From Gemmatimonadales bacterium (lineage in GTDB: Bacteria > Gemmatimonadota > Gemmatimonadetes > Gemmatimonadales > Gemmatimonadaceae): a DNA stretch of 64,000 nucleotides. The notes beneath the pieces were generated by a model. It worked only from the letters and a program-made list of their open reading frames with translations. It had not been told where the DNA came from and ran no database searches. Position numbers and translations under genes: made by a program. The stretch lies in assembly GCA_038228795.1 (NCBI GenBank), contig JBBROY010000019.1, positions 2,905 to 66,904 of the forward strand, read 5' to 3'. Below are positions 8,132-25,894 of the stretch, in pieces; the first letter of the stretch is position 1; each line of letters opens with the position of its first letter.

Positions 8132-8235
8132 CGCCATTGCTCTCGCCTACAATAAAGAGGTAACGTCCGAGCGCAGTGCGAGATGGCGATCTCCCTGTGG
8201 GGTCATCACGGTCGCATCGCTGTCGGAGAGTGCGG

Positions 8236-11386: not shown

Positions 11387-11619
11387 GCGACTGCACGCCC
11401 GACGCAACGGGACATTGCTCGCTCTGCGGCGACGACGCGATCGAGGTGATGATCGTCAGTGTCGACCGTGCCGCGCGGCTCGCGACGGCGCGCGTGAACG
11501 GCGCGCTGGCGACGGTTGCGCTCGATCTGGTCGACGGCGTGAGCGAAGGCGACATGGTGCTCGTGCATCAAGGCTTTGCGATCGACAGGGTCGAGCGGCA
11601 CAGCGGAGGCGCGCAATGA
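11383..11619 (+). CDS. HypC-family paralogue with a Cys-rich N-terminal extension
   Basis: MSDCTPDATGHCSLCGDDAIEVMIVSVD...GDMVLVHQGFAIDRV has a HypC-like beta-barrel core. The Cys is not at position 2. ATGA overlaps at both ends. Confidence 0.65.
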   Translation: MSDCTPDATGHCSLCGDDAIEVMIVSVDRAARLATARVNGALATVALDLVDGVSEGDMVLVHQGFAIDRVERHSGGAQ

Positions 11620-12311
11620 CGAAGGAGCGCGACTTCGGCCGCGAGATGTATCCGTTCCTACACGCGCGCGACACGACGGCGTCCGCACCGCGCGCGGATG
11701 CCGAGCGGCGCGACGCCGTGCGGGAGTCGACGCGCGAGAAATGCCGTGACGCTATCGCCGTGCGTCGTCAATTGGTTTCCGAGTATCGCGATCAGTTCGC
11801 CGAGACGGCGATCGCGATGGCCGGCGCCTTTGCGCGGGGCGGCAAGCTGCTCGCCTTTGGCAATGGCGGGAGCGCGACGGACGCCGAGGACGCGGCATCC
11901 GATTGCCTGGCGCCTCCGATGGCGGGATGGCGACCGCTGCCGGCGATCTCGCTCACCGGCGACAGCGCGGTCGTCACCGCGATCGCCAACGATGTCGGCG
12001 TGGAGCACATCTTTACGCGCCAACTGATCGCGTTCGGCCAGCGCGGCGACATTGCCCTCGGCTTCTCGACCAGCGGAGGCTCGCCGAACGTGATCTCGGC
12101 GATGAAAGAGGGGAAGCGTCGCGGTCTGATCACCGTCGCGCTCACTGGCGGCGACGGCGGCGCGCTCGCTCGCTCGAGCGATGTCGTCGACTTCTGCTTC
12201 GTGGCGCGGCTCGAGTACATCCCGCGAATTCAAGAAGGGCATGCGACGGCCTGGCACATCCTCCTCGAGCTCGTCCACGCGGTGCTGTCGAGCGGAGAGG
12301 CGGCCGCATGA
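11616..12311 (+). CDS. SIS-domain protein, GmhA (phosphoheptose isomerase)-like (paralogue 2)
   Basis: LLAFGNGGSATDAEDAASD...LPAISLTGDSAVVTAIANDVG...GFSTSGGSPNV...ALTGGDGG...IPRIQEGH follows the GmhA motif series closely. Confidence 0.8.
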   Translation: MTKERDFGREMYPFLHARDTTASAPRADAERRDAVRESTREKCRDAIAVRRQLVSEYRDQFAETAIAMAGAFARGGKLLAFGNGGSATDAEDAASDCLAPPMAGWRPLPAISLTGDSAVVTAIANDVGVEHIFTRQLIAFGQRGDIALGFSTSGGSPNVISAMKEGKRRGLITVALTGGDGGALARSSDVVDFCFVARLEYIPRIQEGHATAWHILLELVHAVLSSGEAAA

Positions 12312-13447
12312 CACTGCGCCACGTGGATGAGTACCGGCGCCCTGAGGACATCCGGCATCTCACCGCCGAGATCGAGCGACTCGCGCGCGGCCGCGAGATC
12401 AAGGTAATGGAGGTCTGCGGCGGCCATACGCACGCGATCTACAAGCACGGACTGCAGGATTTATTGCCGCCGAACGTCGAGCTGGTGCACGGGCCGGGTT
12501 GTCCGGTGTGCGTGATCCCGATGGGCCGCTTGGACGACGCCATGGCCATCGCGCGGACCCCCGGCGTGATCTTCACCACGTTCGGCGACATGATGCGCGT
12601 GCCGAGCTCGCGCGGCAGCTTGCTCGATGCGAAGGCCGAGGGGGCGGACGTGCGATTCGTCTATTCGCCGCTCGATGCGCTGCGGTTGGCGCGCGAGACA
12701 CCCGATCAGCACGTGGTCTTCTTCGCTGTCGGGTTCGAAACGACCGCGCCGTCCACCGCCGCCACGCTGCTCCGCGCGCGCGAAGAAGGGATCGAGAACT
12801 TCTCCGTCTTCTGCAACCACGTGACGATCGTGCCGGCGATCAAAGCCATTCTCGATTCGCCCGGGATGCAGCTTGATGGCTTCATCGGGCCCGGACACGT
12901 GTGCACCATCATCGGACTCGCGCCCTTCCAGTTCATCGCGAGCGACTATCGGCGCCCGATCGTGGTGTCGGGCTTCGAGCCGGCCGACGTACTTCAGTCG
13001 GTCGTGATGCTGCTCGAGCAGCTCAAACTCGGCGAGGCGCGGGTGGAAAATCAGTACGCGCGCGTCGTGCGCCCGGCGGGCAATCGGCGCGCCATGGAAA
13101 TCCTGCTCGAGACGATGGAGCTGCGGCCCTACTTCGAGTGGCGCGGGCTCGGCTTCATCAATCACAGCGCGCTCAAGCTCAGGCCCGAGTTCGAGGCGTG
13201 GGACGCCGAAGCACGATTCGCCGTGCCAGGCGTGCGCGTGACCGATCCTAAGGCATGCCAGTGCGGCGAAGTACTCAAGGGCGTATTGAAGCCGTGGCAA
13301 TGCCGGGTGTTCGGCAGCGCCTGCACACCGGAAACGCCCATCGGCTCGTGCATGGTGTCGCCCGAGGGCGCGTGCGCCGCGTACTTCAACTATGGCCGCT
13401 ATTCACTGCAGAAGAGCGCGCGGCAAGTGGCGGGGGCGTCGTCGTGA
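12308..13447 (+). CDS. hypD: Hydrogenase maturation Fe-S protein HypD
   Basis: MEVCGGHTH, HGPGCPVCV, GFETTAPS and GPGHV motifs. ATGA overlap with the upstream gene. Confidence 0.95.
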   Translation: MTLRHVDEYRRPEDIRHLTAEIERLARGREIKVMEVCGGHTHAIYKHGLQDLLPPNVELVHGPGCPVCVIPMGRLDDAMAIARTPGVIFTTFGDMMRVPSSRGSLLDAKAEGADVRFVYSPLDALRLARETPDQHVVFFAVGFETTAPSTAATLLRAREEGIENFSVFCNHVTIVPAIKAILDSPGMQLDGFIGPGHVCTIIGLAPFQFIASDYRRPIVVSGFEPADVLQSVVMLLEQLKLGEARVENQYARVVRPAGNRRAMEILLETMELRPYFEWRGLGFINHSALKLRPEFEAWDAEARFAVPGVRVTDPKACQCGEVLKGVLKPWQCRVFGSACTPETPIGSCMVSPEGACAAYFNYGRYSLQKSARQVAGASS

Positions 13448-14538
13448 CGGCGCGCGTCGAGTCATCACTCCCCGCGCAGCTCGAGCGGATGGCGCGCGCG
13501 CACGACGCGCGCAAGACCCGTCACGTGCTCAAGGACGAGCGCGTGACCCTGAGCCACGGCGCGGGCGGAAAGGCGAGCCATCAGCTGCTCGAGGGACTGG
13601 TCTTCCCCGCCCTGGCGAGCGGTGCGCTCCTGGCGCAGGACGACGCCGCGGTGCTGGCCATCGGCGACCTGCGGCTTGCCTTCACGACGGATTCCTACGT
13701 CGTCAGTCCGATTTTTTTCCCGGGCGGCGACATCGGCTCGCTGGCCGTGCACGGCACGGTGAACGATTTGGCGATGCAGGGCGCGCGACCGCTCGCGCTT
13801 TCAGTCGCGCTCGTGCTCGAGGAAGGCTTCGAGACCGCGGAGCTCAGACGCGTGCTCGAGTCCATGGCCACGGCGGCGCGCGCCACCAGCGTCGAGATCG
13901 TCACCGGCGACACGAAGGTCGTGCCACGGGGCAAGGCGGACCGGATCTTCATCACCACCGCCGGCGTGGGCATCATTGCGGGCGCCGTGAATTTGTCCGT
14001 GCGCAACGCGCGCCCCGGCGATCGCGTGATCCTGAGCGGCGCGATCGGCGATCACGGCATAGCGGTCATGCTCGCGCGTGAGGCACTGGAGCTGGAGTCG
14101 GAAATTCGGAGCGACTCGGCGCCACTCTCTGGCCTCGTGGTGACGCTCCTGGCCGCGGCGCCCGGTACGCGCGCGCTCAAGGATCCCACGCGCGGCGGCG
14201 TCGCAACGGCCCTGAACGAGATTGCCGAGCAAGCGGGCGTCGGCATTGCGATTGATGAGGATCGCGTTCTGGTGCACGATGCGGTGCGCGGTGCCTGCGA
14301 AATCTTGGGCCTCGATCCGATGCACATTGCGAACGAAGGCAAGCTGATCGCGATTGTGCCGCCGGACCAAGCGGAGGCGGCTCTCGCGGCGATGCGCTCG
14401 CACTCGTTAGGCAGCGAAGCAGCAATCATCGGCGAAGTGACCGATGAGCACGACGGAATGGTAGTGGTGCGCACGGGCATCGGCGGCTCGCGCGTGCTCG
14501 ACATGCTGGTCGGCGACCCGCTGCCCCGCATCTGCTAG
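13444..14538 (+). CDS. hypE: Hydrogenase maturation carbamoyl dehydratase HypE
   Basis: LSHGAGGKAS N-terminal motif, PurM-like fold motifs, C-terminal PLPRIC. GTG start overlaps the hypD stop (GTGA); ATG at 13489 is an alternative. Confidence 0.93.
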   Translation: MTARVESSLPAQLERMARAHDARKTRHVLKDERVTLSHGAGGKASHQLLEGLVFPALASGALLAQDDAAVLAIGDLRLAFTTDSYVVSPIFFPGGDIGSLAVHGTVNDLAMQGARPLALSVALVLEEGFETAELRRVLESMATAARATSVEIVTGDTKVVPRGKADRIFITTAGVGIIAGAVNLSVRNARPGDRVILSGAIGDHGIAVMLAREALELESEIRSDSAPLSGLVVTLLAAAPGTRALKDPTRGGVATALNEIAEQAGVGIAIDEDRVLVHDAVRGACEILGLDPMHIANEGKLIAIVPPDQAEAALAAMRSHSLGSEAAIIGEVTDEHDGMVVVRTGIGGSRVLDMLVGDPLPRIC

Positions 14539-14558: not shown

Positions 14559-15851
14559 ATGGCGACGGCGACAGAGCCAGGCAACATCAGGGGCGGACAA
14601 CCCCCGATCCCCGAGACGATGCCCGAGGAAAAGGCACAGCGGCTTCCACTCGGCCCGCTCAAGACGGTGCACGTCTTCTGGATGGCCGGGATGAGCTGCG
14701 ACGGTTGCACGATCACCGTGGCGGGCGCGACCAATCCCGGTATCGAAGGGCTGCTCACGGGTACCGTGCCCGCCATGCCGAAGGTGATCCTGCACCACCC
14801 GGTCCTTTCAGTGGAAGCGGGCGCCGAGTTCATGCAGTCGTTCAAGGACGCCTACGCTGGCACGCTCGCTGATCCGTACGTCGTCGTGTTCGAGGGCTCG
14901 GTGCCAGACGAACGCATCGCCGCGCGCACCGGAGGCTACTGGTCGGCGATGGGCTCCGAGGCGATCGAGGGCGGGAGCGGCGAGACGCATCTCGTGCCGA
15001 CCGCGGAATGGTTGCACCGTCTCGCGCCCGGCGCCGCGGCGACGATCGCCATCGGCACCTGCGCGACGTGGGGCGGCATCCCGTCGGCCGAAGGGAATCC
15101 CACCGGCGCGATGAGCGTGATGGATTTTCTCGGCAAGCAGTATCGCTCCGCGTTCGGCCTTCCGGTCATCAACATTCCTGGCTGCGCGCCGCAGGGCGAC
15201 AATTTCACCGAGACGGTGTTTGCCGTCCTCCTCTTCCTGCAGGGACTCGGCCCTCTGCCCGCCTTCGATGAGCTTGGCCGCCCGTCGTGGCTGTACGGCG
15301 AAACCGTACATCGCGGATGTACGCGCGCTGGCTACTACGAGGAGGGCGTCTTCGCGCATGAGTACGGCGAGAAGGAATGTCTGGTGGAGATCGGCTGCTG
15401 GGGTCCGGTGGTGAATTGCAACATCGTGAAGCGTGGCGCGATCAACCACATGGGCGGATGCATGGAAGCGGGCGGCATCTGCATCGCCTGCACGATGCCC
15501 GGCTTCCCCGACAAATTCTCGCCGTTCTACAAGGCGCCGCCGGGCGGCATTGTGTCGACGGCTCTGTCGTACAGCGTGGGCAGCGTGATTCGCCGCCTGC
15601 GGCGACTCAGCAACCGCCACGCAAGCCGCGAGCATCGGTGGGATGTCAACAATGATGTGCCGAGCGGGTGGGCCAACCTGCCGGGTGAAACGATCGGCCT
15701 CAAGACGATGGAGTTCTTCTACCAGAAGTGGCAGCATTGGGGCGCGAGAAAACCCGGGCGCCGCCCCGGAGAGGAAGCCCGCTTGTGGGGCGGCAATCGT
15801 CCCGGCAAGCCGAGTGACTACATCGACGACAGCGTGTCGGAGGGCAAATGA
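14559..15851 (+). CDS. [NiFe]-hydrogenase small subunit (no Tat signal, no C-terminal anchor helix)
   Basis: FWMAGMSCDGC, IAIGTCATWGGIPSAEGNPTGA, INIPGCAPQGDN and HRGCTRAGYY...GCWGPVVNC...CIACTMPGFPDKF are the cluster-ligand motifs. AGGAG-like RBS lies upstream. Confidence 0.93.
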   Translation: MATATEPGNIRGGQPPIPETMPEEKAQRLPLGPLKTVHVFWMAGMSCDGCTITVAGATNPGIEGLLTGTVPAMPKVILHHPVLSVEAGAEFMQSFKDAYAGTLADPYVVVFEGSVPDERIAARTGGYWSAMGSEAIEGGSGETHLVPTAEWLHRLAPGAAATIAIGTCATWGGIPSAEGNPTGAMSVMDFLGKQYRSAFGLPVINIPGCAPQGDNFTETVFAVLLFLQGLGPLPAFDELGRPSWLYGETVHRGCTRAGYYEEGVFAHEYGEKECLVEIGCWGPVVNCNIVKRGAINHMGGCMEAGGICIACTMPGFPDKFSPFYKAPPGGIVSTALSYSVGSVIRRLRRLSNRHASREHRWDVNNDVPSGWANLPGETIGLKTMEFFYQKWQHWGARKPGRRPGEEARLWGGNRPGKPSDYIDDSVSEGK

Positions 15852-16141
15852 CCGACGCAGAGCTGTGGGCGTCGTGGCGGCTCTGGATGGGCGTGGCGGC
15901 ACTGATCATCGTGATCGCCGCCGTGCTCCTCATCCTCATCTGGCGCACCGCGCGGGGCATTTACACCGAGGCGCTTCGCGCGCTCGCCGCGGCGGAACGC
16001 ATTCGGCAGAACACGATGCCGATCTGGGCGCTCGAGACGACGAACGAAGTCGCGGGCGGTCTCCTCGAGACGGTCCAGCAGATCGAACAGAAGGGCGGCG
16101 CGCTCGCCGCGGCGCTCGAGTCACACGCTGGCGCACACTGA
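15848..16141 (+). CDS. Hydrogenase-associated single-pass membrane mini-protein, paralogue 1 (97 aa)
   Basis: ATGA overlap with the small-subunit stop. Helix WRLWMGVAALIIVIAAVLLILIW, then RTARGI...RIRQNTMPIWAL. Confidence 0.7.
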   Translation: MTDAELWASWRLWMGVAALIIVIAAVLLILIWRTARGIYTEALRALAAAERIRQNTMPIWALETTNEVAGGLLETVQQIEQKGGALAAALESHAGAH

Positions 16142-16154
16142 CGGAGATCAGACC

Positions 16155-16487
16155 ATGCAACAACCATCGGCCGAGGCGGTCCGCACTATCTGGACGCTTT
16201 CTCTCGTTGTCTTCACCGTCGTGCTCGTCGTCGTCGCGGTGCTGCTCACGTTGATCCTGCGCACGGCGCGCGACATCAAAGGGGGCGTGAGCTTGATCTG
16301 GAACGTGGGACAGCGCATCGCCAACAACACCATACATCTGGCGCTGCTCGCGAAGACCAACGCCGGCGCCACGGCGATCCTCAACTCCGCCATCGGCGTC
16401 ATTGGCGCGACATCGGCCGTACAAGCCCACGCCGAGCAGTGTGCCGGGTGTCCGGCGTGCGTTCTCGGGCCGGGGTGGTCGCGATGA
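16155..16487 (+). CDS. Hydrogenase-associated single-pass membrane mini-protein, paralogue 2 (110 aa) with a C-terminal CxxCxxC
   Basis: GGAG RBS lies 9 nt upstream. Helix IWTLSLVVFTVVLVVVAVLLTLIL, then RTARDI...RIANNTIHLALL. Tail is HAEQCAGCPAC. Confidence 0.7.
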   Translation: MQQPSAEAVRTIWTLSLVVFTVVLVVVAVLLTLILRTARDIKGGVSLIWNVGQRIANNTIHLALLAKTNAGATAILNSAIGVIGATSAVQAHAEQCAGCPACVLGPGWSR

Positions 16488-16801
16488 ATCCGTTCACATT
16501 GTTGGCGCTGCTCTCGCTCGTTGGCGCGGCGGCGCTCTTCATCGCGCTGCTGCTCTTTCTGAACTTGATCACCACTGAGCTGGAGAAGATCGGCGGCGAA
16601 GAGAAGGGGTACGGCGTGCGGGCCAGCTTTCTCTCGAAGATTCGCGTCGGCGTTCGCGCGATCGAGACGCAGACGGGCGCGATCGCTCCGCAGGTGACGA
16701 AGCTCAACGGCACGCTCACGCAGGTGCGCGACGGGCTCGTCGCGATCGACAAGAACCTCGCGGGCGTGATTGCCGCCGTCGTGCGACAGGAGACGACATG
16801 A
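16484..16801 (+). CDS. Hydrogenase-associated single-pass membrane mini-protein, paralogue 3 (105 aa)
   Basis: ATGA overlaps at both ends. Helix FTLLALLSLVGAAALFIALLLFLNLI, then AIETQTGAIAPQVTKLNGTL. Confidence 0.7.
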   Translation: MNPFTLLALLSLVGAAALFIALLLFLNLITTELEKIGGEEKGYGVRASFLSKIRVGVRAIETQTGAIAPQVTKLNGTLTQVRDGLVAIDKNLAGVIAAVVRQETT

Positions 16802-17100
16802 GCGCCGATCTCATGCCCGGCTCGGTCTACATCATCTGGTGGATCGGACTGATCGTCACGCTGGTGATTTTCGTGCCGCTCTCGGTCTATCTGCTGCACC
16901 GCACCTGGGTCGCCGCGCGCTCCATCCAGCAATACGCCGCCGAGACACTGACGGCGGCCGCCGGCATCGCGGGCAACACCCAACACATTCCCGCGCTCGA
17001 CGCGACGATTTCGGTCGGCGGCTCCATGGTCGCCGTCGCCGGAGAGATCGCCGCCAAACTCGAAGCCGCCGGCGGTGTGCTCGCCGACCGCGCGAAGTGA
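16798..17100 (+). CDS. Hydrogenase-associated single-pass membrane mini-protein, paralogue 4 (100 aa)
   Basis: ATGA overlap. Helix VYIIWWIGLIVTLVIFVPLSVYLL, then HRTWVAARSI...GIAGNTQHIPAL. Confidence 0.7.
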   Translation: MSADLMPGSVYIIWWIGLIVTLVIFVPLSVYLLHRTWVAARSIQQYAAETLTAAAGIAGNTQHIPALDATISVGGSMVAVAGEIAAKLEAAGGVLADRAK

Positions 17101-17110
17101 GGACACACCC

Positions 17111-17374
17111 ATGCTCTTGATGCTGACGCTCATCGTCGTCGCTCTCGTCGTGCTCGCGTTGGCCGGCTATCTCATCGCGATAGCGTGGGCTCTGATGGCG
17201 GCCCGGCGCAGTGTGGCCGCCATCGCCGACGGACTCGAAGCAGTGGCCGGCCACACCGCGCCGCTGCCGGACAAGCTCACCACGATCAACGGCGCGCTCA
17301 CGCAGCTCCTCACCGGCCTTCAGGCCGCCGACCGCCACCTCGGGCGCGTCGCCACCGTCTTCAAGCTCGGCTGA
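17111..17374 (+). CDS. Hydrogenase-associated single-pass membrane mini-protein, paralogue 5 (87 aa)
   Basis: Helix MLLMLTLIVVALVVLALAGYLIAIAWAL, then MAARRSV...AVAGHTAPLPDKLTTINGAL. Ends 26 nt before the large-subunit ATG. Confidence 0.65.
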   Translation: MLLMLTLIVVALVVLALAGYLIAIAWALMAARRSVAAIADGLEAVAGHTAPLPDKLTTINGALTQLLTGLQAADRHLGRVATVFKLG

Positions 17375-17400
17375 GCGACCGGCCGCGGAGTTAGCGAGTC

Positions 17401-19299
17401 ATGTGCTTCAAGAATCTTCCTGTCGAGTTCGACGCGCAGGGCAAGGCGTTTCTCAAGGACGGCGCCGGGAATCCTTACTCGACCGCGACCGCCGGTCCGC
17501 CCGGCGTTCCCAAGCAGCTGACATCGGAGCGGGTGGCCGAGCTGGTCAAGCGCAACGGACACGTCAAGGATGTCGATTTCGATCCGGTGACGCGCGTCGC
17601 CGGCGCGCTCGCCTTTCACACCGTCGCCGACGTGCGCGAGCGCAAGGTGATCGAAGCGCGCTCCGTCGCGACGCTGTTCCGCGGCTATGAGGTGATCATG
17701 ATCGGCCGCGATCCGCGCGACGCGATCTTCATCACGAGCCGCGCCTGCGGCGTGTGCGGCGGCGTGCACTCGACCTGTTCCGCGCTGGCGATCGAGATGG
17801 CGATCGGTTGCAATCCACCACCGCTCGGCGTGCTCATTCGCAATCTCGCGCTGGCGCTCGAGTTTCTCTACGACAACCCGTTGCACCTGCATCTGCTCGC
17901 CGGCCCCGACTACTCGGCCGCGATCGTCGAGGGGACGAATCCGGGATTGATCGAGCGCGCACGGCACACCGAGGCGAAGCACACCGCGGTGCATGGATAT
18001 AAGACGATTCTCGAATTGATGACCGACCTCAATCCGCTCAGCGGTGGCTTGTATCTCGAGGCGCTGCACATGACGCGCGTGGCGCGCGAAGCCTACGTGC
18101 TCATCTGCGGCAAGTATCCGCATCCGCAGACGATCGTGCCGGGCGGGATGAGCTCGACCATCAACCTGACCGTGATGAACGAGATGTACGTCCGCATGAG
18201 CCAGTTCTTCGATTACGGCAAGAAGATGGCGGGGATCTGGGATGATCTGACCGAGTTCTTTTACGAGGCGGATGAGAAGTACAAGATGGTGGGGGCGCGC
18301 CGCGCCAACATGATCGATACGGGCATCTTCGACCATCCCGACGCGTACGACGCGACGTACAAGAACGCGAGCGAGTGGGGCAATCGCAGGTGGGCGACGC
18401 CGGGCGCGATCGTCGACGGCCAACTCGTCACGACCGATCTGCACAAGATCAACATGGGGCTCGAGGAGTTCGTCGAGCACTCGTACTACGAGCCGTGGAC
18501 TGGCGATGGACAGAAACAGCGCTTCGCAACCGACGAGATCGGGCTGCCGCTCTCGCCCTATCACCCGTGGAACAAGGTGACGAAGCCCAAACCCGGCGCG
18601 CAGAGTTGGAAGGAGAAGTACACGTGGGACACCGCCCCACGGTGGGATCGGCTCGGTATGGAAGCGGGATGCTACGCGCGGCTCTGGAACACGGCTGTCG
18701 CGCGCAAGATGCCGGACAATCCATTCATCGAGTCGACCGGGCATTCGCTCAAGATTCGCTTGCCGCGCGGGAAGCTGCCCGAGATGGAGATCGAGTGGCA
18801 CGTGCCCAAGGTATGGAACGCGTTCGAGCGCAATCGTGCCCGCGCGTACTGCGTGGGCTGGGTCGCGATGACGGCGATGAATCAGTGGATGGCGGCGATG
18901 GAGCGCCTCAAGGATGGAGACACCAAGACGTCGACCAAGTTCGAGATCCCCAAGCGCGGCGAGCAGATGGGCGTCGGCTTCTGGGGCGCCGGTCGCGGAT
19001 ACCTCACGCACCATCTGGTGCTCGATCGCGGCGCGGTCGCCAACTACCAGATCGTCACGCCCTCGACGTGGAACGCGTCGCCGACCGATCGGTGGGGGCA
19101 GCCCGGTCCATACGAGGAGGCGGTGATGAATACGCCGCTCCTCGAGGAGTCGACCGATCCGGCGAAGTTCCGCGGCATCGACATCCTGCGCGCCATTCGT
19201 AGCTTCGACCCATGCATGCCGTGCACGACGCACATTCAGTCGGAGGCGGGTATGATCACGCGCGAGGTCAATACGTGCGCGTGCGGTCTGGACGATTGA
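17401..19299 (+). CDS. [NiFe]-hydrogenase large (catalytic) subunit
   Basis: N-terminal DPVTRVAGAL, L1 motif SRACGVCGGVHS, RGYEVIMIGRDPRD, L2 motif SFDPCMPCTTH followed by a 21-aa C-terminal extension. GGAG RBS lies upstream. Confidence 0.95.
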   Translation: MCFKNLPVEFDAQGKAFLKDGAGNPYSTATAGPPGVPKQLTSERVAELVKRNGHVKDVDFDPVTRVAGALAFHTVADVRERKVIEARSVATLFRGYEVIMIGRDPRDAIFITSRACGVCGGVHSTCSALAIEMAIGCNPPPLGVLIRNLALALEFLYDNPLHLHLLAGPDYSAAIVEGTNPGLIERARHTEAKHTAVHGYKTILELMTDLNPLSGGLYLEALHMTRVAREAYVLICGKYPHPQTIVPGGMSSTINLTVMNEMYVRMSQFFDYGKKMAGIWDDLTEFFYEADEKYKMVGARRANMIDTGIFDHPDAYDATYKNASEWGNRRWATPGAIVDGQLVTTDLHKINMGLEEFVEHSYYEPWTGDGQKQRFATDEIGLPLSPYHPWNKVTKPKPGAQSWKEKYTWDTAPRWDRLGMEAGCYARLWNTAVARKMPDNPFIESTGHSLKIRLPRGKLPEMEIEWHVPKVWNAFERNRARAYCVGWVAMTAMNQWMAAMERLKDGDTKTSTKFEIPKRGEQMGVGFWGAGRGYLTHHLVLDRGAVANYQIVTPSTWNASPTDRWGQPGPYEEAVMNTPLLEESTDPAKFRGIDILRAIRSFDPCMPCTTHIQSEAGMITREVNTCACGLDD

Positions 19300-19303
19300 C
19301 CGC

Positions 19304-19900
19304 ATGGCTCGCCGTACCGTGATGCGCACGGTGATCGGCGGCGTCGGTTATCGCAATCTGCGCGATCACTCGTTAGGCATCATGATGAGCGACGAGCTCG
19401 AGCCGGAAGCGCGCCCGCCGGCGCTGCTGGTCGAAGACTTGAGCTACGGCCCCGTGGCCGTCGGCCAGTGGCTGCTCGATGAGGCGCGCGACGCTCCCGA
19501 AGGACCGATCACGCGCGCGATCTTCATCTCGGCCATCGCGCGGGCAGACGGCCGCCCGCCAGGTACGATGTGCGCCTACCGGTGGGACCGCGTTCTTCCG
19601 TCGCCCGATGAAATTCAACGCTGCGTCACCGATGCGGTGACCGGCGTGATTCTGCTCGACAACACGCTGATCGTCACGGCGTGGATGGGCGCGCTCCCCG
19701 ATGACGTGATCGTGGTCGAAGTCGAGCCGATGGAGCACGCGTTCGGCGATGAGATGAGCGCGTCGGTCGCGGCCGCGTATGCTGAAGCCAAGCCGCTCGT
19801 GATGACGCTCGCGACCGACGTCGCCGCCTCGCGCGCGCTTCCGGTCATGCCCCTGGGCGGAGGCTGGGCGCGTACCGGCGTGTGGAGCCTCGCTCGATGA
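19304..19900 (+). CDS. Divergent HyaD/HybD-like hydrogenase maturation protease family protein
   Basis: MRTVIGGVGYRNLRDHSLG resembles the vlGiGN.l.gDdg.G N-terminus of the endopeptidases. About 198 aa. Starts 4 nt after the large subunit. Confidence 0.55.
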   Translation: MARRTVMRTVIGGVGYRNLRDHSLGIMMSDELEPEARPPALLVEDLSYGPVAVGQWLLDEARDAPEGPITRAIFISAIARADGRPPGTMCAYRWDRVLPSPDEIQRCVTDAVTGVILLDNTLIVTAWMGALPDDVIVVEVEPMEHAFGDEMSASVAAAYAEAKPLVMTLATDVAASRALPVMPLGGGWARTGVWSLAR

Positions 19901-20814
19901 CTGAGGCCGAGCGGGCGCCCGATGCCGATGGCGACTCGGGAGACGTCCTCGCGGAAGTCGAGCAGCTCATCGCCCTGCTCACGGCGCATACCGATCCAAT
20001 CGTCGGCGAGACCGTGACGGCGCTGCTCGACCGCGTCGACGCCGTACACCGTACCGCGCTCGCGCATCTCATGGGCGCCATCCAGTCGATGGCCGGTGAC
20101 GCCTTCGTCAACCGGCTCACCGGCGACCCGGCGATCCGGCTGCTGCTCATGTCATACGACCTGCTCGCCGTGGATCGGCGCACGCTGGCCGAGGAGGCAC
20201 TCGATGCGGTGCGCGGTCACCTCCACGCGCATGGCATCGACGTCGAGCTCGTCGAAGTACTCGGCGGCGTCGTCTCCGTTCGCCTGCACGGGGCGCCGAC
20301 GGACGATCCAGCATATGCGGGCGCGGTGCGAGACATCGGCCAAGCGTTGCAGACAGGGTTCCTTGGCTTTCAGGAGCTCGAGCTGCGCGACGGCAAAGGC
20401 GCGCGGCCGGTGTCGAAAGACTCGACGTTTCTGCCGCGGGAGGCACTGCAGCGGGCGTTTCGGCCGGTGTACTCGGCGATTTGCGCGGCCGCGGAGATTG
20501 CGCCCGGGAGCACTCGGAGCGCGATCGTGAACGGGATGCCCGTGCTGTTGGCAAACGTCGACGGCGAGTTCTACGCTGTTCGCAACGCATGCGGCGATGG
20601 TCCGCTCCCGCTCGACTACAGCACGCTCGACGGCGCCGAGCTCACGTGCAGCTGGCACCGCTGCCGCTACGACATGCGCACCGGCCACCGGTTGGACTAC
20701 CCGGAGGCATCGCAGGATGAGCAGTTGGTCGTGTACCCGGTGCGCGTTCGCGATGGCGTGATCGAAGTCGTGGTCGGCACCGCGCCGGCGAGCGCCAGCG
20801 CGGCGGGCACCTAG
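19897..20814 (+). CDS. NifU-C-like plus Rieske-like two-domain protein (HucE/HhyE-like putative Fe-S electron carrier)
   Basis: HGIDVELVEVLGGVVSVRLHG is NifU-C-like without CxxC. The C-terminal part, FYAVRNACGDGPLPL...LTCSWHRCRYDMRTGH...VYPVRVRDGVIEV, has Rieske/NirD-like fold motifs. ATGA overlap upstream. Confidence 0.6.
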   Translation: MTEAERAPDADGDSGDVLAEVEQLIALLTAHTDPIVGETVTALLDRVDAVHRTALAHLMGAIQSMAGDAFVNRLTGDPAIRLLLMSYDLLAVDRRTLAEEALDAVRGHLHAHGIDVELVEVLGGVVSVRLHGAPTDDPAYAGAVRDIGQALQTGFLGFQELELRDGKGARPVSKDSTFLPREALQRAFRPVYSAICAAAEIAPGSTRSAIVNGMPVLLANVDGEFYAVRNACGDGPLPLDYSTLDGAELTCSWHRCRYDMRTGHRLDYPEASQDEQLVVYPVRVRDGVIEVVVGTAPASASAAGT

Positions 20815-21305
20815 TGCGCACCCTCATCGCAGGTTTCGGCAACGTGCTGCGCGGCGACGATGGCTTCGGAGTCGAGGTGCTTCGGCGGCTCGGGGAGTGC
20901 GGCGTGGCGAGCGACTCGGTCGAGCTGCTCGATGTCGGGACTGGCGGCATCCGCTTGGCGCAGGAGCTGATCAATCCGTACGACCGCCTCATCATCATCG
21001 ACGCGACCACACGGGGAGGCGTGCCGGGAACGGTGTACGTCCTGGCCATCGACGGCGTCGAGGCGGCGCGCGAGATTGACATGCACACCGCGATACCGTC
21101 GGCCGCCCTGTCCGTCGCCAAAGCGTTGGGCGCGCTGCCGCCCGAGATCTTCTTGATTGGATGCGAGCCGGCGGAGGTGGATGATCTCGTGGTTGGGCTG
21201 TCGGCCGCCGTGAGCGTCGCCGCCGATGCGGCGGTGCAACGGGTTCATGAGCTGATGCGGAAGCAGAGTGCGTTTGCGCGAACGGAGGTGAGCAATGAGC
21301 GGTGA
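20814..21305 (+). CDS. Hydrogenase maturation endopeptidase (HyaD/HybD/HupD family)
   Basis: MRTLIAGFGNVLRGDDGFGVEV...LIIIDA...DMHTA...FLIGCEP are canonical protease motifs. GTG start. Confidence 0.88.
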   Translation: MRTLIAGFGNVLRGDDGFGVEVLRRLGECGVASDSVELLDVGTGGIRLAQELINPYDRLIIIDATTRGGVPGTVYVLAIDGVEAAREIDMHTAIPSAALSVAKALGALPPEIFLIGCEPAEVDDLVVGLSAAVSVAADAAVQRVHELMRKQSAFARTEVSNER

Positions 21306-21678
21306 CCAACCCGGCGACGATATTGCTCGCCGCGACGAGCTGCTGGAGCTGCTATACTGGCTCGAAGGCGAGGGCTTCCATGGCAACGCGACGTTGGACG
21401 GGATCGTCCGCTTCGTCGCGCACCCGGAAGCGCAGGTGCGTCACACGCTGAGCGACCTCGTGCGGCGCGGCGACGTGATCGTCCATCACGAGAGTGGCGA
21501 GCATCGCCTGACCGAGCCTGGCCGTCGCGAAGCGGCACGCCGATTCGCGGCGGAGTTCGCGCCGCTGTTGGGTCAGGGGCACGGCGAGTGTAGTGATCCG
21601 AATTGCGACTGTCACGAAAATCCAGGTGCGGCGGCCGAGTGTCATGCAGCGCGCGCCCATCAAGGTCACGAGCACTGA
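21295..21678 (+). CDS. Winged-helix-like protein with a C-terminal Cys/His-rich metal-binding tail
   Basis: LLELLYWLEGEGF...VRHTLSDLVRRGDVIV...HRLTEPGRREA is wHTH-like. Tail is GHGECSDPNCDCHENPGAAAECHAARAHQGHEH. Overlaps both neighbours. Confidence 0.5.
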   Translation: MSGDQPGDDIARRDELLELLYWLEGEGFHGNATLDGIVRFVAHPEAQVRHTLSDLVRRGDVIVHHESGEHRLTEPGRREAARRFAAEFAPLLGQGHGECSDPNCDCHENPGAAAECHAARAHQGHEH

Positions 21679-22448
21679 TGCGACTCGCCATTGCGGGAAA
21701 GGGCGGCACGGGAAAAACGACGATTGCCGGCACATTGGCGCGGATTCTCGCGCAGAGCGGCCGCCATGTGATCGCGATCGACGCCGATACCAATCCGAAT
21801 CTGGCGACGACGCTCGGGGTGCCGCCGGATCAGGTGCAGAGCATCGCGGCGCTCCCGCGCAACTTGATGGAGCGGCGCGCAAATGAAGACGGCACCACGA
21901 GGGTGGTGTTCACCGCGTCGCCGGCCGACGTGCTCGAACGGTTCGGCACGCGCGCGCCCGACGGCGTGCGACTGTTGATGATGGGCAAGGTCGATCACGG
22001 CGGCGCCGGTTGACTGTGCTCCGCCCACGCCACGGTCCGTGGCTTACTCGGAGAGATCGTCCAGAACAGCAGTGACGACAGCGACATCATCGTCGACATG
22101 GAGGCGGGCCTCGAGCATCTCTCGCGCGGCACCGGCCGGCATCTCTCGCGCTTCGTCGCCGTGCTCGAGCCGTACTACCGCTCGATGGAAACCGCCCGGC
22201 GCGTGGCGCTGCTCGCCAAAGAGCTGGGGATCGACGATGTCGTGGTGCTCGCGAACAAGGTGCGCGACGACGAGGATCGGCGCGCGATTGCCGAGTTCTG
22301 CGGCGCGCACGAGCTCAGCGTGGTGGGCGAGATCCCCTACGATGCGAGCCTGATCGAGACCGAGCGGCGTGGCGATGCTCCGGTCGAGCAGCGCCCGCAG
22401 GGCCCCGCGGTCACCGCGATCCGCGCGCTGGTTGATGTTCTCGCGTAG
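21678..22448 (+). CDS. CooC-type (MinD/ParA-class) nickel-insertion ATPase with one in-frame TGA (22011-22013): candidate selenoprotein, otherwise a pseudogene or split gene
   Basis: P-loop AIAGKGGTGKTT, GKVDHGGAG-[TGA]-LCSAHATVRGLL, DMEAGLEHLSRGT. Both ORF-track pieces (21603..22013 and 22098..22448) are in the same frame. Residues between them still read as CooC. Confidence 0.75.
22019..22053 (+). promoter_or_regulatory. SECIS-like bipartite stem-loop immediately downstream of the in-frame UGA
   Basis: Lower stem CUCCG (22019-22023) pairs with CGGAG (22049-22053). A 5x5 internal loop follows. Upper stem GCCAC (22029-22033) pairs with GUGGC (22039-22043). Apical loop is GGUCC. Confidence 0.35.
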
Positions 22449-24027
22449 GAAGAGACGCCACGGCTCGTGGCGCACCGTATCGGTGGTGGCGTCGGGCATG
22501 GCCGTCGTCTCATCGTCGCTCGCTCAAGTGAGCACGAGATCGCCGTCCACGATCGTCGCCGTCACCGGTACCGATCCGGCGCACCTCAACTCGGCCATCA
22601 CGACCGCGGGTGGCGTGCACACCATCGCGGGTTCGCTCTACGACGGACTCGTCGAGCTCGATTCCGCGGGCCGTCCATTGCCGGGGCTCGCCGAACGCTG
22701 GGACGTGAAGGACGGTGGGCGAACTTACGTATTTCACCTGCGACGCGATGTCGTGTGGCACGACGGCATTCGCTTCACGTCGCGCGACGTGACATACACG
22801 TTCACGGAGATGCTGCTCAAGTACTCGGCGCGCGCGAAGGCCGGCCTCGAGCCAGCCTTGTCCGGCATTGATGCGCCCGATGACACGACGGTCATCTTTC
22901 GCTTCAAGGCGCCGTACGCGCCGTTGCTCAAGCGACTGACTGTCGACGAGACGCCGATTCTGCCGCGCCATCTCTATGAGGGAACGGACCCGCTCACGAA
23001 TCCACATAACGCGAGTCCGGTCGGCACGGGACCGTATCGCTTCGTGGAGTGGGTGCGCGGCGATCGCATCGTCTTCGCCCGGAATCCACGGTACTTCATC
23101 AAGGGCCGCGCGCGCATCGACCGCGTCGTCTGGCGCATTCTGCCCAACGTCACCGCCCAAACCATCGCGCTCGAGCGAGGCGAAGTCGACTACCTCGGGG
23201 GCGTCGAGGGGTCGCAGCTCGCTCGCCTTCGAGCGGCGCCGGCCGTGCGGCTGGCGCGTCATCCCGCCGGCGCCGGTGGCGGGTGGTGCGTGAACACGCT
23301 CGTGCCCAACTTGCACCGCCACCCGCTCGACGATGCGCGAGTGCGGCGCGCGCTCAGCCTCTCGATCGACCGGGCCTTTCTCGCGAGCCGCCTATACCAA
23401 GGCACCGCCAGCCCGGCGCGCGGTCCCTTTCACACCGCGCTCGGCGCGACGGATCGCGTTGCGGCGCCACTCGCGTTTGACTCCGCCCGCGCCGACAGTC
23501 TCTTCGCCGCGGCCGGGATCGTTCGGCGCGCGGGTGGGTCGCGCCTTCAACTTCGCTTCAGCTACGGAACGCCCGGGTTCGAAGCGCTGGCCGAAACGCT
23601 GCGCGACCAGTTCGCGCGCGCCGGCGTCGAGTTAGTGCTCGATCCGATGGACTTCAATGCCGCGGTCGAGAAGGTGTACATCAAGCAGGACTTCGATCTC
23701 GGTGTGGCCTCGTACTGCAACGGCGCCGACCCCGACATCGGCGTGAAGCGCGTGTACGATTCGCGAAACATCCTTCCGATTCCATTCGGAAACGGCGCGG
23801 CATACCGCAATCCAGTCGTCGATTCACTCTTCGATCTGGCGGCCGCAACGCTCGACCCGGCGCGACGGAAACAGCTCTACGGCAGGCTGCAGCGCATCCT
23901 CCTCGACGACGTCCCCTATCTCTGGCTCGTCGAGACCGACGGGCTGCGCGCCTGGCGCGCCGAGGTGCGAGGTCTCCGCATCTGGAGCGGGCATACGTTC
24001 GACGAGGCGACGATCGTCGCGCACTGA
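22435..24027 (+). CDS. ABC transporter substrate-binding protein, family 5 (peptide/nickel, NikA/DppA-like)
   Basis: Signal-like N-terminus, then family-5 motifs (LVELD..G...PGLAERWDV.DGG.TYVFHLR.DV.WHDG). The start at 22435 overlaps the CooC-like gene by 14 nt. Confidence 0.85.
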   Translation: MFSRRKRRHGSWRTVSVVASGMAVVSSSLAQVSTRSPSTIVAVTGTDPAHLNSAITTAGGVHTIAGSLYDGLVELDSAGRPLPGLAERWDVKDGGRTYVFHLRRDVVWHDGIRFTSRDVTYTFTEMLLKYSARAKAGLEPALSGIDAPDDTTVIFRFKAPYAPLLKRLTVDETPILPRHLYEGTDPLTNPHNASPVGTGPYRFVEWVRGDRIVFARNPRYFIKGRARIDRVVWRILPNVTAQTIALERGEVDYLGGVEGSQLARLRAAPAVRLARHPAGAGGGWCVNTLVPNLHRHPLDDARVRRALSLSIDRAFLASRLYQGTASPARGPFHTALGATDRVAAPLAFDSARADSLFAAAGIVRRAGGSRLQLRFSYGTPGFEALAETLRDQFARAGVELVLDPMDFNAAVEKVYIKQDFDLGVASYCNGADPDIGVKRVYDSRNILPIPFGNGAAYRNPVVDSLFDLAAATLDPARRKQLYGRLQRILLDDVPYLWLVETDGLRAWRAEVRGLRIWSGHTFDEATIVAH

Positions 24028-24042
24028 TTGGACGGCGGCTCC

Positions 24043-25002
24043 ATGTGGCGCATCGTCGGCCGTCGGCTGGCGCTCGCGGTGCCGCTGCTGGTCGGTGTCG
24101 CGGCGATCAACTTCGCCCTGATCTCGCTCGTTCCCGGTGATCCCGTCGCCCTGCTCTTCGGCGAAGGCGGTGCGCCCGATGTGGCGACGCTGGCCGCGCT
24201 GCGCGCCAGACTCGCCCTGGACCGGCCACTCCCAGAACGATTCCTCGCCTATCTGAGCGAGCTGGCACACGGGCATCTCGGACAATCGATCGTGCAGGGA
24301 CGCTCGGTGACGGACGCGATCGCCGAGCGGCTGCCGGCGACGCTCCTGCTGGCGGGCACCGCATTGCTGCTCGCCGCCGTTTTCGGTGTGGGGCTCGGCC
24401 TCCTGCTCACGAGAATCGCGCAGCGAGCGCCTCGCCTCGAGCGCGCGGCGTTTCTCGCGTTGCTCCTGGGCGGGAATCAGCCGCCCTTCGTCGCCGGGCT
24501 GGTGCTCATGGTCGTCTTCGCGCTGGTGCTTGGCGTGCTGCCGAGCCAGGGAATGACGTCGGCTCGCAACGGCGGCCCGCTCGACATGATTGCCCATCTC
24601 GCGCTCCCCGCTCTAACGCTGGCGCTGCAGCCGATGTTTGGAGTGGCGCGCGTCACCCGCGCGCGGCTGCTCGACCTGTGGCAGCGCGACCACGTACGGA
24701 CCGCGCGCGCGAGCGGGATTCCGGAGTGGCGCATCCTCTGGCGGCACGTGCTGCGGAACGCGCTTACGGCGCCGCTCACGCTGCTCGCGCTCACCGCGGC
24801 GCACTGGGCTGGCGGCGCGGTGCTCACCGAAACGGTGTTCGCTTGGCCGGGCATCGGCCGCCTCGCCGTGGACGCGACATTGGCGCGCGACTATCCAATG
24901 ATTCTCGGCGTGATCTTGACCGGAACGTTGCTCGTCGTGGTGGCGAACCTGGCGGCCGATCTGCTGCTGGCCGTCGTCGACCCGAGGCTCCGGCATGACT
25001 GA
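24043..25002 (+). CDS. ABC transporter permease (NikB/DppB-like)
   Basis: MWRIVGRRLALAVPLLVGVAAINFALISLVPGDP is the typical N-terminus of this family. Multiple TM helices. Confidence 0.88.
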   Translation: MWRIVGRRLALAVPLLVGVAAINFALISLVPGDPVALLFGEGGAPDVATLAALRARLALDRPLPERFLAYLSELAHGHLGQSIVQGRSVTDAIAERLPATLLLAGTALLLAAVFGVGLGLLLTRIAQRAPRLERAAFLALLLGGNQPPFVAGLVLMVVFALVLGVLPSQGMTSARNGGPLDMIAHLALPALTLALQPMFGVARVTRARLLDLWQRDHVRTARASGIPEWRILWRHVLRNALTAPLTLLALTAAHWAGGAVLTETVFAWPGIGRLAVDATLARDYPMILGVILTGTLLVVVANLAADLLLAVVDPRLRHD

Positions 25003-25894
25003 GAACGCCTCGCCGGAGTTTGGCGCGCGCGAGCGCCTCCGCGATGAGCTGCTCATCGTCGAACGCGCTCCGCTGAGCGCACGCATCGCCGGCTCGTGGA
25101 CGATCGGCGAAGGAGCGATCGCCGCGACGATTCTCGTCGCGTTTGCGCTCGTCGCGCTTGCGCCGAATATCTTCGCGTCGGCGGGCGGGCTCGCCAGCGG
25201 AGGCGCGGCACTCGCGCCGCCCAGTGTCGCGCATCCGCTCGGCACCGACCTAGTCGGCCGTGACGGATGGTCGCGCCTCGCATTCGGTGCGCGGACATCG
25301 CTCACCGTCGGCGTGCTCGCGACCGTCATCGCGCTCACGGTCGGCGTGTTCGTTGGGGCCTTGGCCGCGCTCCTTGGTGGTTGGTGGGATGATCTCTTGA
25401 TGCGCGTCGCCGAGCTCGCCGATTCGATTCCCGCGCTGCTGTTGGCGCTGCTGCTCGTCACCGTGATGGGACCAGGACTGGTGCCAGTCGCGCTGGTGGT
25501 GGGGCTGACAGGATGGCTTGGCATCGCGCGCATCGTCCGCGCTGAGCTGCTGGTGGCGTATGCCACACCGTACGTGATCGCCGCGCGCGCGCTCGGTGCG
25601 GGGCGCGCCCGGCTCGCCATACGGCACCTCGCGCCCGAGGTGCTCGTGCCCGTGCTGGCGCTGATTCCATTTCGTATGGAGGGCGCGATCATCGTCGAAG
25701 CGGGTCTGTCATTCTTGGGCGTGGAAAACGCGGGGCGGCCGAGCTGGGGCGCGATGCTGCGGGATGCGCAGCCGCTGCTGCTCGACGCGTGGTGGCTCGC
25801 CGCGGCGCCGATGGCGGCACTGGCTCTTCTCCTGTTCGCGCTCGGCCTGCTGGCTGATCACCTTCAGCGCTCGCTCGATCCGCGGTTTCGGTAG
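24995..25894 (+). CDS. ABC transporter permease (NikC/DppC-like)
   Basis: HPLGTDLVGRDGWSRLAFGARTSL motif. Multiple TM helices. 8-nt overlap with the upstream permease. Confidence 0.88.
   Translation: MTENASPEFGARERLRDELLIVERAPLSARIAGSWTIGEGAIAATILVAFALVALAPNIFASAGGLASGGAALAPPSVAHPLGTDLVGRDGWSRLAFGARTSLTVGVLATVIALTVGVFVGALAALLGGWWDDLLMRVAELADSIPALLLALLLVTVMGPGLVPVALVVGLTGWLGIARIVRAELLVAYATPYVIAARALGAGRARLAIRHLAPEVLVPVLALIPFRMEGAIIVEAGLSFLGVENAGRPSWGAMLRDAQPLLLDAWWLAAAPMAALALLLFALGLLADHLQRSLDPRFR

Follow-up and report, generated by a model that had tools for sequence, protein, structure and literature searches.

The stretch of DNA analyzed here, which we call the window, is 64,000 nucleotides of contig JBBROY010000019.1 from a Gemmatimonadales bacterium. 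At 21678–22448 of its forward strand lies a gene for a CooC-type P-loop ATPase in which codon 112 is an in-frame UGA. The UGA stands where the CooC family has the first Cys of its metal-binding motif, and a short RNA hairpin lies just downstream. We conclude that this UGA is genuinely recoded, and very probably read as selenocysteine (Sec). An earlier, sequence-only reading of the window had proposed a Sec codon at the C-x-C motif followed by a selenocysteine insertion sequence (SECIS). That proposal is now supported by the dichotomy of UGA and Cys codons in related genomes, by the substitution pattern on the two sides of the UGA, by a hairpin tied to TGA, and by the fit of the hairpin to the bacterial SECIS model.

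The ATPase gene and its product

Translation of 21678–22448 gives one frame of 256 codons with a single internal stop, the TGA at 22011–22013. The two pieces 21603..22013 and 22098..22448 of the open reading frame (ORF) track, which had been taken at the outset for one frame split by one TGA, do share the frame of the gene. The frame has neither a frameshift nor a second stop. Its start is the ATG at 21678 (MRLAIAGKGGTGKTT), which matches the start in all homologues, and the read-through product is GKVDHGGAG-[UGA]-LCSAHATVRG...DMEAGLEHLSRGT. The features of the gene are as follows.

21678..22448, plus strand: CooC-type (MinD/SIMIBI) P-loop ATPase gene, 256 codons with UGA at codon 112, then a stop codon; Pfam CbiA and CooC1 match
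21696..21722, plus strand: deviant Walker A motif (P-loop) GKGGTGKTT, residues 7–15; read from the sequence, invariant in homologue alignments
22011..22013, plus strand: UGA, residue 112, first position of the U-x-C metal motif; alignment to CooC1 Cys112 and codon comparison
22017..22028, plus strand: rest of the G-U/C-x-C-x-x-H motif, with the Cys114 codon at 22017–19 and the His117 codon at 22026–28; invariant or nearly invariant in alignments
22095..22118, plus strand: conserved DMEAGLEH segment of the C-terminal half, in which Met141 is ATG 22098; invariant in Cys and Sec forms

A reassigned genetic code is not the explanation of the internal TGA, because UGA is an ordinary stop in the genes of the window: 24 of the 42 confidently coding ORFs end in TGA.

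In public databases the gene appears in fragments. GenBank entries for the N-terminal fragment are 111 aa long and named ‘AAA family ATPase’ (e.g., MEJ7760679.1, MGI9079171.1), and the IMG name for the fragments is ‘CO dehydrogenase maturation factor’. No full-length form annotated with Sec was found in the protein database, where the best full-length matches are Cys forms of at most 68% identity.

When Cys is put in for the UGA, the product matches Pfam CbiA, the MinD/ParA-type P-loop family, at 1.9e-18. A phmmer search finds CooC1 of Carboxydothermus hydrogenoformans (3KJE; E 1.9e-33, residues 1–234) as the sole whole-length match among solved structures. In this alignment, GGAG-[UGA]-L-C falls on GGSQ-C112-Y-C114 of CooC1, so the UGA corresponds to Cys112, i.e., to the first Cys of the C-x-C motif, where the sequence-only reading had placed it by eye. 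CooC1 uses its conserved Cys-X-Cys, at the dimer interface, to chelate metal (PMC3792862). The column of the UGA is a nearly invariant Cys in 23 full-length homologues, and the full-length Cys homologues are 47–68% identical to the window ATPase. A Cys homologue with 67% identity (P0003) was modeled with AlphaFold; the mean predicted local distance difference test score is 88, and the metal loop 108–112 is the least confident part. The fold of this model matches CooC1 best (3KJE; template modeling score 0.77/0.80), followed by MinD, FleN, and NifH. The window protein has full-length similarity to the CooC family, the deviant Walker A sequence GKGGxGKT, and U112-L-C114 at the position of C-x-C. 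By sequence and fold it is a CooC-family ATPase; in view of its setting in a hydrogenase cluster (see below), it is not a CooC in the functional sense.

Codon 112 in related genomes

A scan of one genome per GTDB species yielded 80 loci. In these species-representative genomes, the codon in the column of the first Cys reads TGA in 56 cases, TGT in 16, and TGC in 8; TAA, TAG, and sense codons for residues other than Cys are absent from codon 112 in all 80. The sequence-only reading had advised looking for TGA, TGC, or TGT at this codon in orthologues, and had counted random disruption there as evidence against itself. Only TGA and Cys codons occur, and random disruption is not seen.

With the N-terminal 111 residues as query, the best 120 clusters (at 90% identity) are nearly all exactly 111 aa long and are 66–100% identical, and gene callers stop at the codon 112 TGA in samples from NCBI, JGI, ENA, and Logan. 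In a separate scan, JGI metagenomes were searched for the hairpin described below preceded by any T-first codon, and 80 contigs were read (L088–L167). The codon is TGA in 79 of these hairpin-bearing contigs and TCA (Ser) in one; TGY is found in none of the 80. The proteins that they encode are 31–85% identical to the window ATPase.

A gene that is intact but for one in-frame stop looks like the result of a fresh nonsense mutation, as would be expected of a recent pseudogene; in like manner, TGA is one base away from TGC and TGT, either of which might have been misread in sequencing or assembly. Both explanations are ruled out because codon 112 is only TGA, TGT, or TGC across the 80 species. 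A pseudogene is also at odds with the presence of the TGA in 56 species-level genomes and in 79 metagenome contigs whose proteins are as little as 31% identical to the window ATPase, and with a downstream sequence that is under intact purifying selection and has neither frameshifts nor second stops. The comparative data have already refuted it, and we regard it as extremely improbable. To a misread base we give a smaller probability still, one that is practically negligible. The TGA with 100% identical flanks recurs in two separately assembled public read sets, SRR19962015 and SRR24807096, which may represent the same strain, and the same codon is present in assemblies from dozens of unrelated projects; this explanation, too, is already refuted.

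Translation across the UGA

Nonsynonymous-to-synonymous divergence ratios (dN/dS) and proportions of synonymous differences (pS) were computed pairwise by the Nei–Gojobori method for 49 TGA forms of the Gemmatimonadota type. Three segments of the gene were compared.

Residues 1–111: dN/dS 0.20, pS about 0.6
23 codons past the UGA, up to the next Met and without those of the hairpin: dN/dS 0.22, pS about 0.6
Residues 141–255: dN/dS 0.18, pS about 0.6

Purifying selection is equal before and after the UGA. The codons directly 3′ of the UGA keep L/M-C-S-A-H as protein, while their third positions are free to vary. This mode of evolution indicates that translation continues through the UGA.

The same comparison bears on the arrangement that gene callers and GenBank adopt (e.g., the 111-aa ‘AAA family ATPase’ MEJ7760679.1), namely, a truly split gene whose 111-aa P-loop fragment assembles with a separate 116-aa C-terminal fragment. 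The latter would be initiated at Met141 (ATG 22098), which is the apparent start of the second ORF-track piece. A split gene with a non-coding spacer is contradicted because the codons past the UGA evolve as coding sequence: the 28 codons from the UGA to Met141 evolve at dN/dS 0.22 and keep L/M-C-S-A-H...G-E, and Cys114 and His117 of the metal motif fall in the supposed spacer. It is further contradicted because Met141 sits in the invariant DMEAGLEH segment, in unsplit Cys forms as well, and because no ribosome-binding site precedes it; no Shine–Dalgarno-like sequence was found upstream of ATG 22098. Nor does a split gene explain the use of TGA over TAA or TAG in 56 of 56 species or the TGA-specific hairpin. 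We therefore hold a split gene to be very unlikely.

A hairpin tied to the UGA

Past the UGA, the RNA can fold as follows.

22029..22043, plus strand: conserved SECIS core, stem GCCACG/CGUGGC with a GUC loop, within codons A-T-V-R-G; minimum free energy (MFE), pairing, and synonymous constraint
22019..22053, plus strand: extended hairpin with lower stem CUCCG/CGGAG; MFE −17 kcal/mol, present in the window, not conserved

The upper stem pairs 22029–34 with 22038–43 and starts 15 nt after the UGA. By RNAfold, a 5-bp stem with a GGUCC loop is an alternative pairing equivalent to the 6 bp with a GUC loop. The family consensus is 15 nt long, GCCRCG-GUY-CGYGGC, and lies within codons A-T/A-V-R-G. 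The sequence-only reading had drawn a bipartite hairpin, of which the upper part holds up as a conserved element and the lower part does not. Among 57 TGA sequences, the upper helix is paired in 98.5% of cells. The lower stem (22019–23 with 22049–53) does form in the window sequence according to RNAfold, but the lower helix is paired in only 69.5% of cells and its middle pair in 5 of the 57 sequences. Covariation, a search for which had also been recommended, is seen at one upper-stem pair, where the pair types are A-U in 44, G-C in 10, and C-G, U-A, and G-U in one each.

The bacterial SECIS model, as its rules are stated in PMC13188914, calls for a loop of 3–9 nt with a G in its first two positions, an upper stem of 4–16 bp, 16–37 nt from the UGA to the loop, and an MFE of −7.5 kcal/mol or lower. 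The window hairpin agrees with every one of these rules, having a spacing of 20–21 nt, 6 bp, and, for the 15-mer, an MFE of −8.0 kcal/mol. Counted from the U of the UGA, GGUC starts at nt 24 in the window and at nt 22 in E. coli fdhF, as read from the genome, which agrees with the earlier judgement that the loop geometry is close to that of the fdhF SECIS.

The hairpin distinguishes TGA forms from Cys forms. An MFE of −7.5 kcal/mol or lower for the 15-mer is reached by 54 of 57 TGA forms and by none of 24 Cys forms. Third-position entropy in codons +6 to +10 is 0–0.84 bits in TGA forms versus 0.8–1.7 in Cys forms, with 1.0–1.7 bits in flanking four-fold codons, and pS is 0.13 in the hairpin versus about 0.6 elsewhere, an approximately 4.6-fold lower synonymous divergence. 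The Actinomycetota provide a natural control: L068, a TGT form, encodes MCSSHATVRG using ACC GTG CGC GGG, whereas its TGA-form relatives L069, L070, L072, and L077 encode the same residues with ACG GTC CGT GGC. The hairpin is thus more strongly conserved than the encoded residues alone would demand, and its presence goes with that of the UGA.

Thermodynamic stability alone was rejected as a criterion. The MFE of the whole 50-mer does not separate Sec forms (−15.0) from Cys forms (−15.3); only the MFE of the 15-mer at its specific position tells them apart. When the element was modeled by covariance together with its flanks, the homologous site was the sole match in the window; this model is dominated by coding sequence and adds little.

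An identical hairpin with TGA is also present in CooC-like subfamilies in which the residues before the UGA differ, namely, MGQPSHGGSG-U, MARATEPGGG-U, MTGLLGAGKG-U, and MGRPQAGVG-U.

The residue inserted at codon 112

Recoding of the UGA is required because of the comparative evidence, i.e., the conserved UGA, the hairpin, and translation across the UGA. That the residue inserted would be Sec is the standard conclusion for such a codon. In the mechanism envisaged, the bacterial-type SECIS at 22029–22043 would direct recoding: SelB with Sec-tRNA(Sec) would bind the GGUC-type loop while the ribosome is at the UGA, and Sec would be inserted at residue 112.

The comparative results demand recoding; they do not by themselves identify the amino acid. 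The UGA might instead be read as Cys, by a tRNA-Sec-like tRNA(Cys) together with a SelB-like factor, or the hairpin might stimulate near-cognate read-through with insertion of Trp, Cys, or Arg. That no Sec machinery was located in the window and related loci (see below) suits these possibilities. Against them, codon 112 alternates with Cys codons only, as in known Sec/Cys pairs, and the hairpin fits both the SelB-type SECIS model and the loop position of GGUC in fdhF. Simple read-through would be expected to yield mostly truncated product, yet the gene is under strong selection. The known tRNA(Cys)-UCA systems are few and belong to other lineages. Insertion of a residue by such a non-Sec route is, in our view, unlikely, and Sec is the reading that we retain.

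Several observations weigh against Sec. First, tRNA-Sec (ARAGORN) and selA, selB, and selD (tblastn with the E. coli sequences) were not found in the window and 160 related loci, 1.45 Mb in all; this is as expected if these genes lie elsewhere in the genomes. Second, no paper documenting the use of Sec in Gemmatimonadota was found in the literature searched. Third, the hairpin is not exceptionally stable: the 50-nt fold has a stability z of −0.9, 39 of 200 shuffles fold equally well, and the DNA is 66% G+C. The significance of the hairpin stems from comparison with other genomes, not from stability. Fourth, three TGA forms miss the hairpin stability threshold. Fifth, no Rfam family matches anywhere in the window at the gathering threshold, and an E-value search of 21980–22090 gave chance matches alone (mir-4599, asR3). 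This null is uninformative because Rfam lacks a general bacterial SECIS model. Sixth, a member of the ArsS radical-SAM (seleno)protein family in the window (30174–31412, minus strand; TIGR04167, 2e-126) is a single ORF with GSSCGG near its C-terminus, i.e., a Cys form, just as had been remarked when the sequence was first read. Families having both Sec and Cys forms within one genome are common, so the ArsS form says little.

Two departures from the consensus stem are also on the side of these objections. At L034:6253–6321 there is a stem mismatch (GCCGAG...CGCGGC), and at L065:10325–10393, from Acidimicrobiia, the stem is shifted (CAUGCC-CAGGUGC-GGCAUG). A third variant, the doubly compensated stem GCCUC-CGUGC-GAGGC, is found at L053:2453–2521, a locus located inside a Cys clade. 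The variant hairpins of L053, L034, and L065 may be independent gains or decaying elements.

In the searches for Sec genes, the SelD-like matches proved to be HypE, and the SelB-like match in L100 proved to be EF-G.

Exchange of Sec and Cys and a second UGA-containing ATPase

The neighbour-joining protein tree shows Sec to predominate in the Gemmatimonadota clade. Nested among the Sec forms is a Cys clade, which itself encloses a Sec form, L053; a Cys form, L017, is inside a Sec clade, and another, L068, is found among the Sec forms of Actinomycetota. At least four switches between Sec and Cys have taken place on this tree, and such interleaving is typical of true Sec/Cys families.

All related loci and the window were screened by G+C content at third codon positions (GC3) for ORFs bridged by TGA. 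The candidates were mostly adjacent genes in the same frame, with one real extra, a CooC-like ATPase paralogous to the first whose UGA falls in the same metal motif. This paralogue is not present in the window. It was identified as a TGA-bridged ORF at the following sites.

L033:2865–3647, plus strand: paralogue, TGA at 3180
L007, about 5050–5800, plus strand: paralogue
L078, about 16243–16923, minus strand: paralogue

The motif is ...NSGCG-U-CGVSPEQLL in L033 and L007, both of which also carry the main Sec gene, and ...DPG-U-P-U-CG, with two UGA codons, in L078. The paralogue has a conserved hairpin of its own, CUGAGC-AGUU-GCUCAG, about 16 nt downstream. Its N-terminal fragment, used as query, retrieves more than 100 public protein clusters ending at exactly 103 or 105 aa, from Gemmatimonadota, Acidimicrobiales, Dormibacteraeota, Eremiobacteraeota, Chloroflexota, and Ca. 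Sulfotelmatobacter. As a whole, the paralogous UGA-CooC clade, whose members have one or two UGA codons, extends across Gemmatimonadota, Acidimicrobiales, Dormibacterota, Eremiobacterota, Chloroflexota, and Acidobacteriota. Sec decoding in these organisms is indirectly supported because two UGA genes, each with its own hairpin, occur on one contig. In L007, the one locus whose neighbourhood was inspected, the paralogue lies within the same hydrogenase/nickel-transport cluster, adjoining a further MinD-type ATPase, and it may do work related to that of the main ATPase.

Directly upstream of the paralogue there is a further divergent MinD/CbiA-type ATPase ORF, at L007:4064–5053 (plus strand), L033:2170–2793 (plus strand), and L078 about 16998–17633 (minus strand). 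Some clusters hold three CooC/MinD-like ATPases in a row.

The hydrogenase cluster

The ATPase gene of the window is preceded by hydrogenase maturation and structural genes and followed by a nickel-type importer. The layout is as follows.

8176..14538, plus strand: maturation gene block (NCBIfam)
8176–10569, plus strand: hypF (NCBIfam)
10560–10832, plus strand: hypC (NCBIfam)
10562–12311 (about), plus strand: SIS-domain (GmhA/phosphoheptose-isomerase-like) ORFs between hypC and hypD, conserved in related hydrogenase clusters
within 11903–13447, plus strand: hypD (NCBIfam)
13255–14538, plus strand: hypE (NCBIfam)
14559..21305, plus strand: group 1h [NiFe]-hydrogenase core (Pfam, NCBIfam)
14559–15851, plus strand: hydrogenase small subunit (Pfam/NCBIfam)
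15848–17374, plus strand: five small ORFs (97, 110, 120, 100, and 99 aa) between the small and large subunit genes, order and sequence conserved in related loci
17401–19299, plus strand: hydrogenase large subunit (5AA5 match)
19304–19900, plus strand: 198-aa ORF (o198), recurring in related loci
19882–20814, plus strand: NifU/Rieske protein (Pfam/NCBIfam)
20814–21305, plus strand: HyaD-type maturation protease (Pfam/NCBIfam)
21295..21678, plus strand: 127-aa ORF (o127), stop overlapping the ATPase start (TGATG; read from the sequence)
22498..25894, plus strand: Nik/oligopeptide-type ABC importer, directly downstream of the ATPase (NCBIfam)
22498–24027, plus strand: NikA-like binding protein from its called start, the ORF extending from 22369 (nickel_nikA, 5e-40)
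24028–25002 and 24995–25894, plus strand: importer permeases (Opp2B nickel permease, 1e-71; Opp2C, 1.9e-52)

The large subunit is by far closest to 5AA5, an enzyme of the actinobacterial-type, O2-insensitive group 1h (E 6.8e-153 versus 3.6e-53 or weaker for other hydrogenase groups), and it keeps Cys (CMPC). The NifU/Rieske protein that follows is one that we take to be of the HhyE type. None of the five small ORFs at 15848–17374 has a Pfam or NCBIfam match, and the same is true of the 127-aa protein. The latter has a winged-helix-like N-terminal part followed, in alignment, by a conserved Cys/His-rich tail, GHGECxDPxCDCHxNPxxAAECH..H.H. In essentially all Gemmatimonadota loci, those with Sec and those with Cys, its gene precedes the ATPase by 0.7 kb. 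The 127-aa protein may be a metal-binding partner of the ATPase, i.e., a nickel-binding partner or an analogue of HypA.

The order hydS ... hydL–o198–NifU/Rieske–HyaD–o127–ATPase is kept in most Gemmatimonadota loci of sufficient length, whether the ATPase is a Sec or a Cys form. In Actinomycetota, Acidimicrobiia, Nitrospinaceae, and Verrucomicrobiota, the ATPase adjoins hydrogenase or hyp genes in loci long enough to tell. The window ORFs that were scanned included no gene for a Ni,Fe CO dehydrogenase (cooS/acsA). The sequence-only reading had made the protein a CO-dehydrogenase (CooC) factor; the setting in a group 1h [NiFe]-hydrogenase cluster does not bear this out.

Elsewhere in the window, at 37164–45560 on the minus strand, there is a giant ORF, 2798 aa long, whose GC3 is of the coding type.

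A proposed role in nickel insertion

Homology and strict synteny suggest that the ATPase is probably a nickel insertase for the group 1h hydrogenase. The U-x-C motif would take the place of the C-x-C that chelates Ni/Zn at the CooC1 dimer interface. ATP and nickel would drive dimerization of two subunits, forming a nickel site of two Sec and two Cys, and ATP hydrolysis would hand the nickel to the hydrogenase large subunit before cleavage by the HyaD protease. The ATPase would thus act as HypB does elsewhere, probably with the 127-aa Cys/His-rich protein, and would obtain its nickel from the downstream ABC importer. Nickel binding by the metal site and the hydrogenase as client are both predicted from sequence relationships and gene order. 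As for the advantage of Sec over Cys, we can only speculate that organisms living in air would profit from its lower pKa, from a faster exchange of ligands, and from easier recovery once oxidized.

With respect to HypB, the genomic setting is the one expected, as the ATPase is encoded with hydS, hydL, and hypCDEF. This setting supports the statement that the protein works like HypB, not membership in the HypB family. A tblastn search with the E. coli HypB and HypA proteins gave no match, for HypB at E <= 1e-3, in the window and the 160 related loci. HypA is short and divergent and may escape tblastn, so its absence is a weak negative, and hypA or hypB could lie elsewhere in the genome; both considerations tell against the proposed role, as does the fact that nickel, the client, and the replacement of HypB are all assigned from homology and gene context. 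Our broader proposal, which we hold tentatively, is that a Sec-ligated CooC-type ATPase may replace HypB for group 1h hydrogenases in most Gemmatimonadota and in some Actinomycetota and Acidimicrobiia, bringing selenium into nickel delivery for the oxidation of atmospheric H2.

The consequences for annotation are the more immediate. Public databases store hundreds of these genes as fragments of 111 aa and about 116 aa, and for these genes both the fragment annotation and the ‘CODH maturation’ label (CODH, CO dehydrogenase) are wrong. One selenoprotein family, and with the paralogue probably two, would be added to those catalogued, among them the first MinD/CooC-type ATPase. Sec would be placed in a nickel-trafficking site rather than a redox site, in aerobic soil bacteria. 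The family points to HypB-independent insertion of nickel into the high-affinity hydrogenases that consume atmospheric H2, possibly with a selenium requirement. If this is true, trace-gas scavenging in soil would depend on the supply of selenium, and the phyla concerned would have an uncatalogued Sec-decoding trait. The natural Sec/Cys pair could serve for probing what selenium does in metal transfer, e.g., whether it speeds exchange or protects against oxidation. Given the likeness of the SECIS loop to that of fdhF, the gene may be expressible in E. coli.

Comparison with known systems

A 2026 review catalogues 119 prokaryotic selenoprotein families and subfamilies with domain identifiers (PMC13188914). 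No CooC/MinD/ParA-type ATPase is among the 119, and no report of a Sec-containing CooC or nickel chaperone was found in the literature searched, in line with the sequence-only reading, which knew of none. We conclude that the ATPase very probably represents a new selenoprotein family. The recoding mechanism is conventional; what was not to be expected is the proposed function in hydrogenase nickel insertion. Among the entries, the CobW-related selenoprotein (NF041053, UxxC; Table 1 of PMC13188914) is the closest in kind. Both are metallochaperone-type NTPases with Sec in place of one Cys in the motif that binds metal. In contrast to the window protein, with its UxC, the CobW-related protein is a COG0523/G3E GTPase with UxxC and has no hydrogenase link.

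CooC1 and the window protein share the deviant Walker A motif and a metal motif at the same position, with about 29% identity. They differ in that the window protein has the UGA-encoded residue for the first Cys, and in that the conserved His of G-U/C-x-C-x-x-H is absent from CooC1. Their settings differ as well: CooC1 is an ATP-dependent nickel-insertion factor for Ni,Fe CO dehydrogenase, whereas the window gene is fixed in a group 1h hydrogenase cluster with no Ni-CODH gene nearby.

HypB and the window protein are both SIMIBI-class NTPases, and HypB dimerizes around a Cys-ligated metal site (PMC3792862). The two belong to different branches, HypB being a G3E GTPase and the window protein a MinD-type ATPase. 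The expected place in the pathway is the same, the window gene being encoded with hypCDEF and the maturation protease; the likeness of role is presumed from these relationships. A precedent for a MinD-type ATPase serving hydrogenase nickel insertion is the Mrp/MinD-family ATPase-type HypB of Thermococcus kodakarensis (PMC7055735). No nickel site has been identified in that protein (PMC7055735), whereas the window family has the conserved U/C-x-C-x-x-H. The T. kodakarensis protein is missing both from the sequence matches of the window ATPase at E <= 1e-5 and from the 50 best fold matches of the modeled Cys homologue.

The window hairpin and the E. coli fdhF SECIS are both stem-loops in coding sequence just past the UGA, with GGUC in the apical loop. 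The fdhF element carries a bulged U. The window element is a perfect 6-bp stem of different sequence and has no conserved lower stem. Finally, Sec is known as a nickel ligand in hydrogen metabolism from the [NiFeSe] hydrogenases (PMC13188914). Theirs is in the catalytic large subunit and in anaerobes, whereas here Sec would be in an assembly chaperone serving an aerobic-type enzyme.

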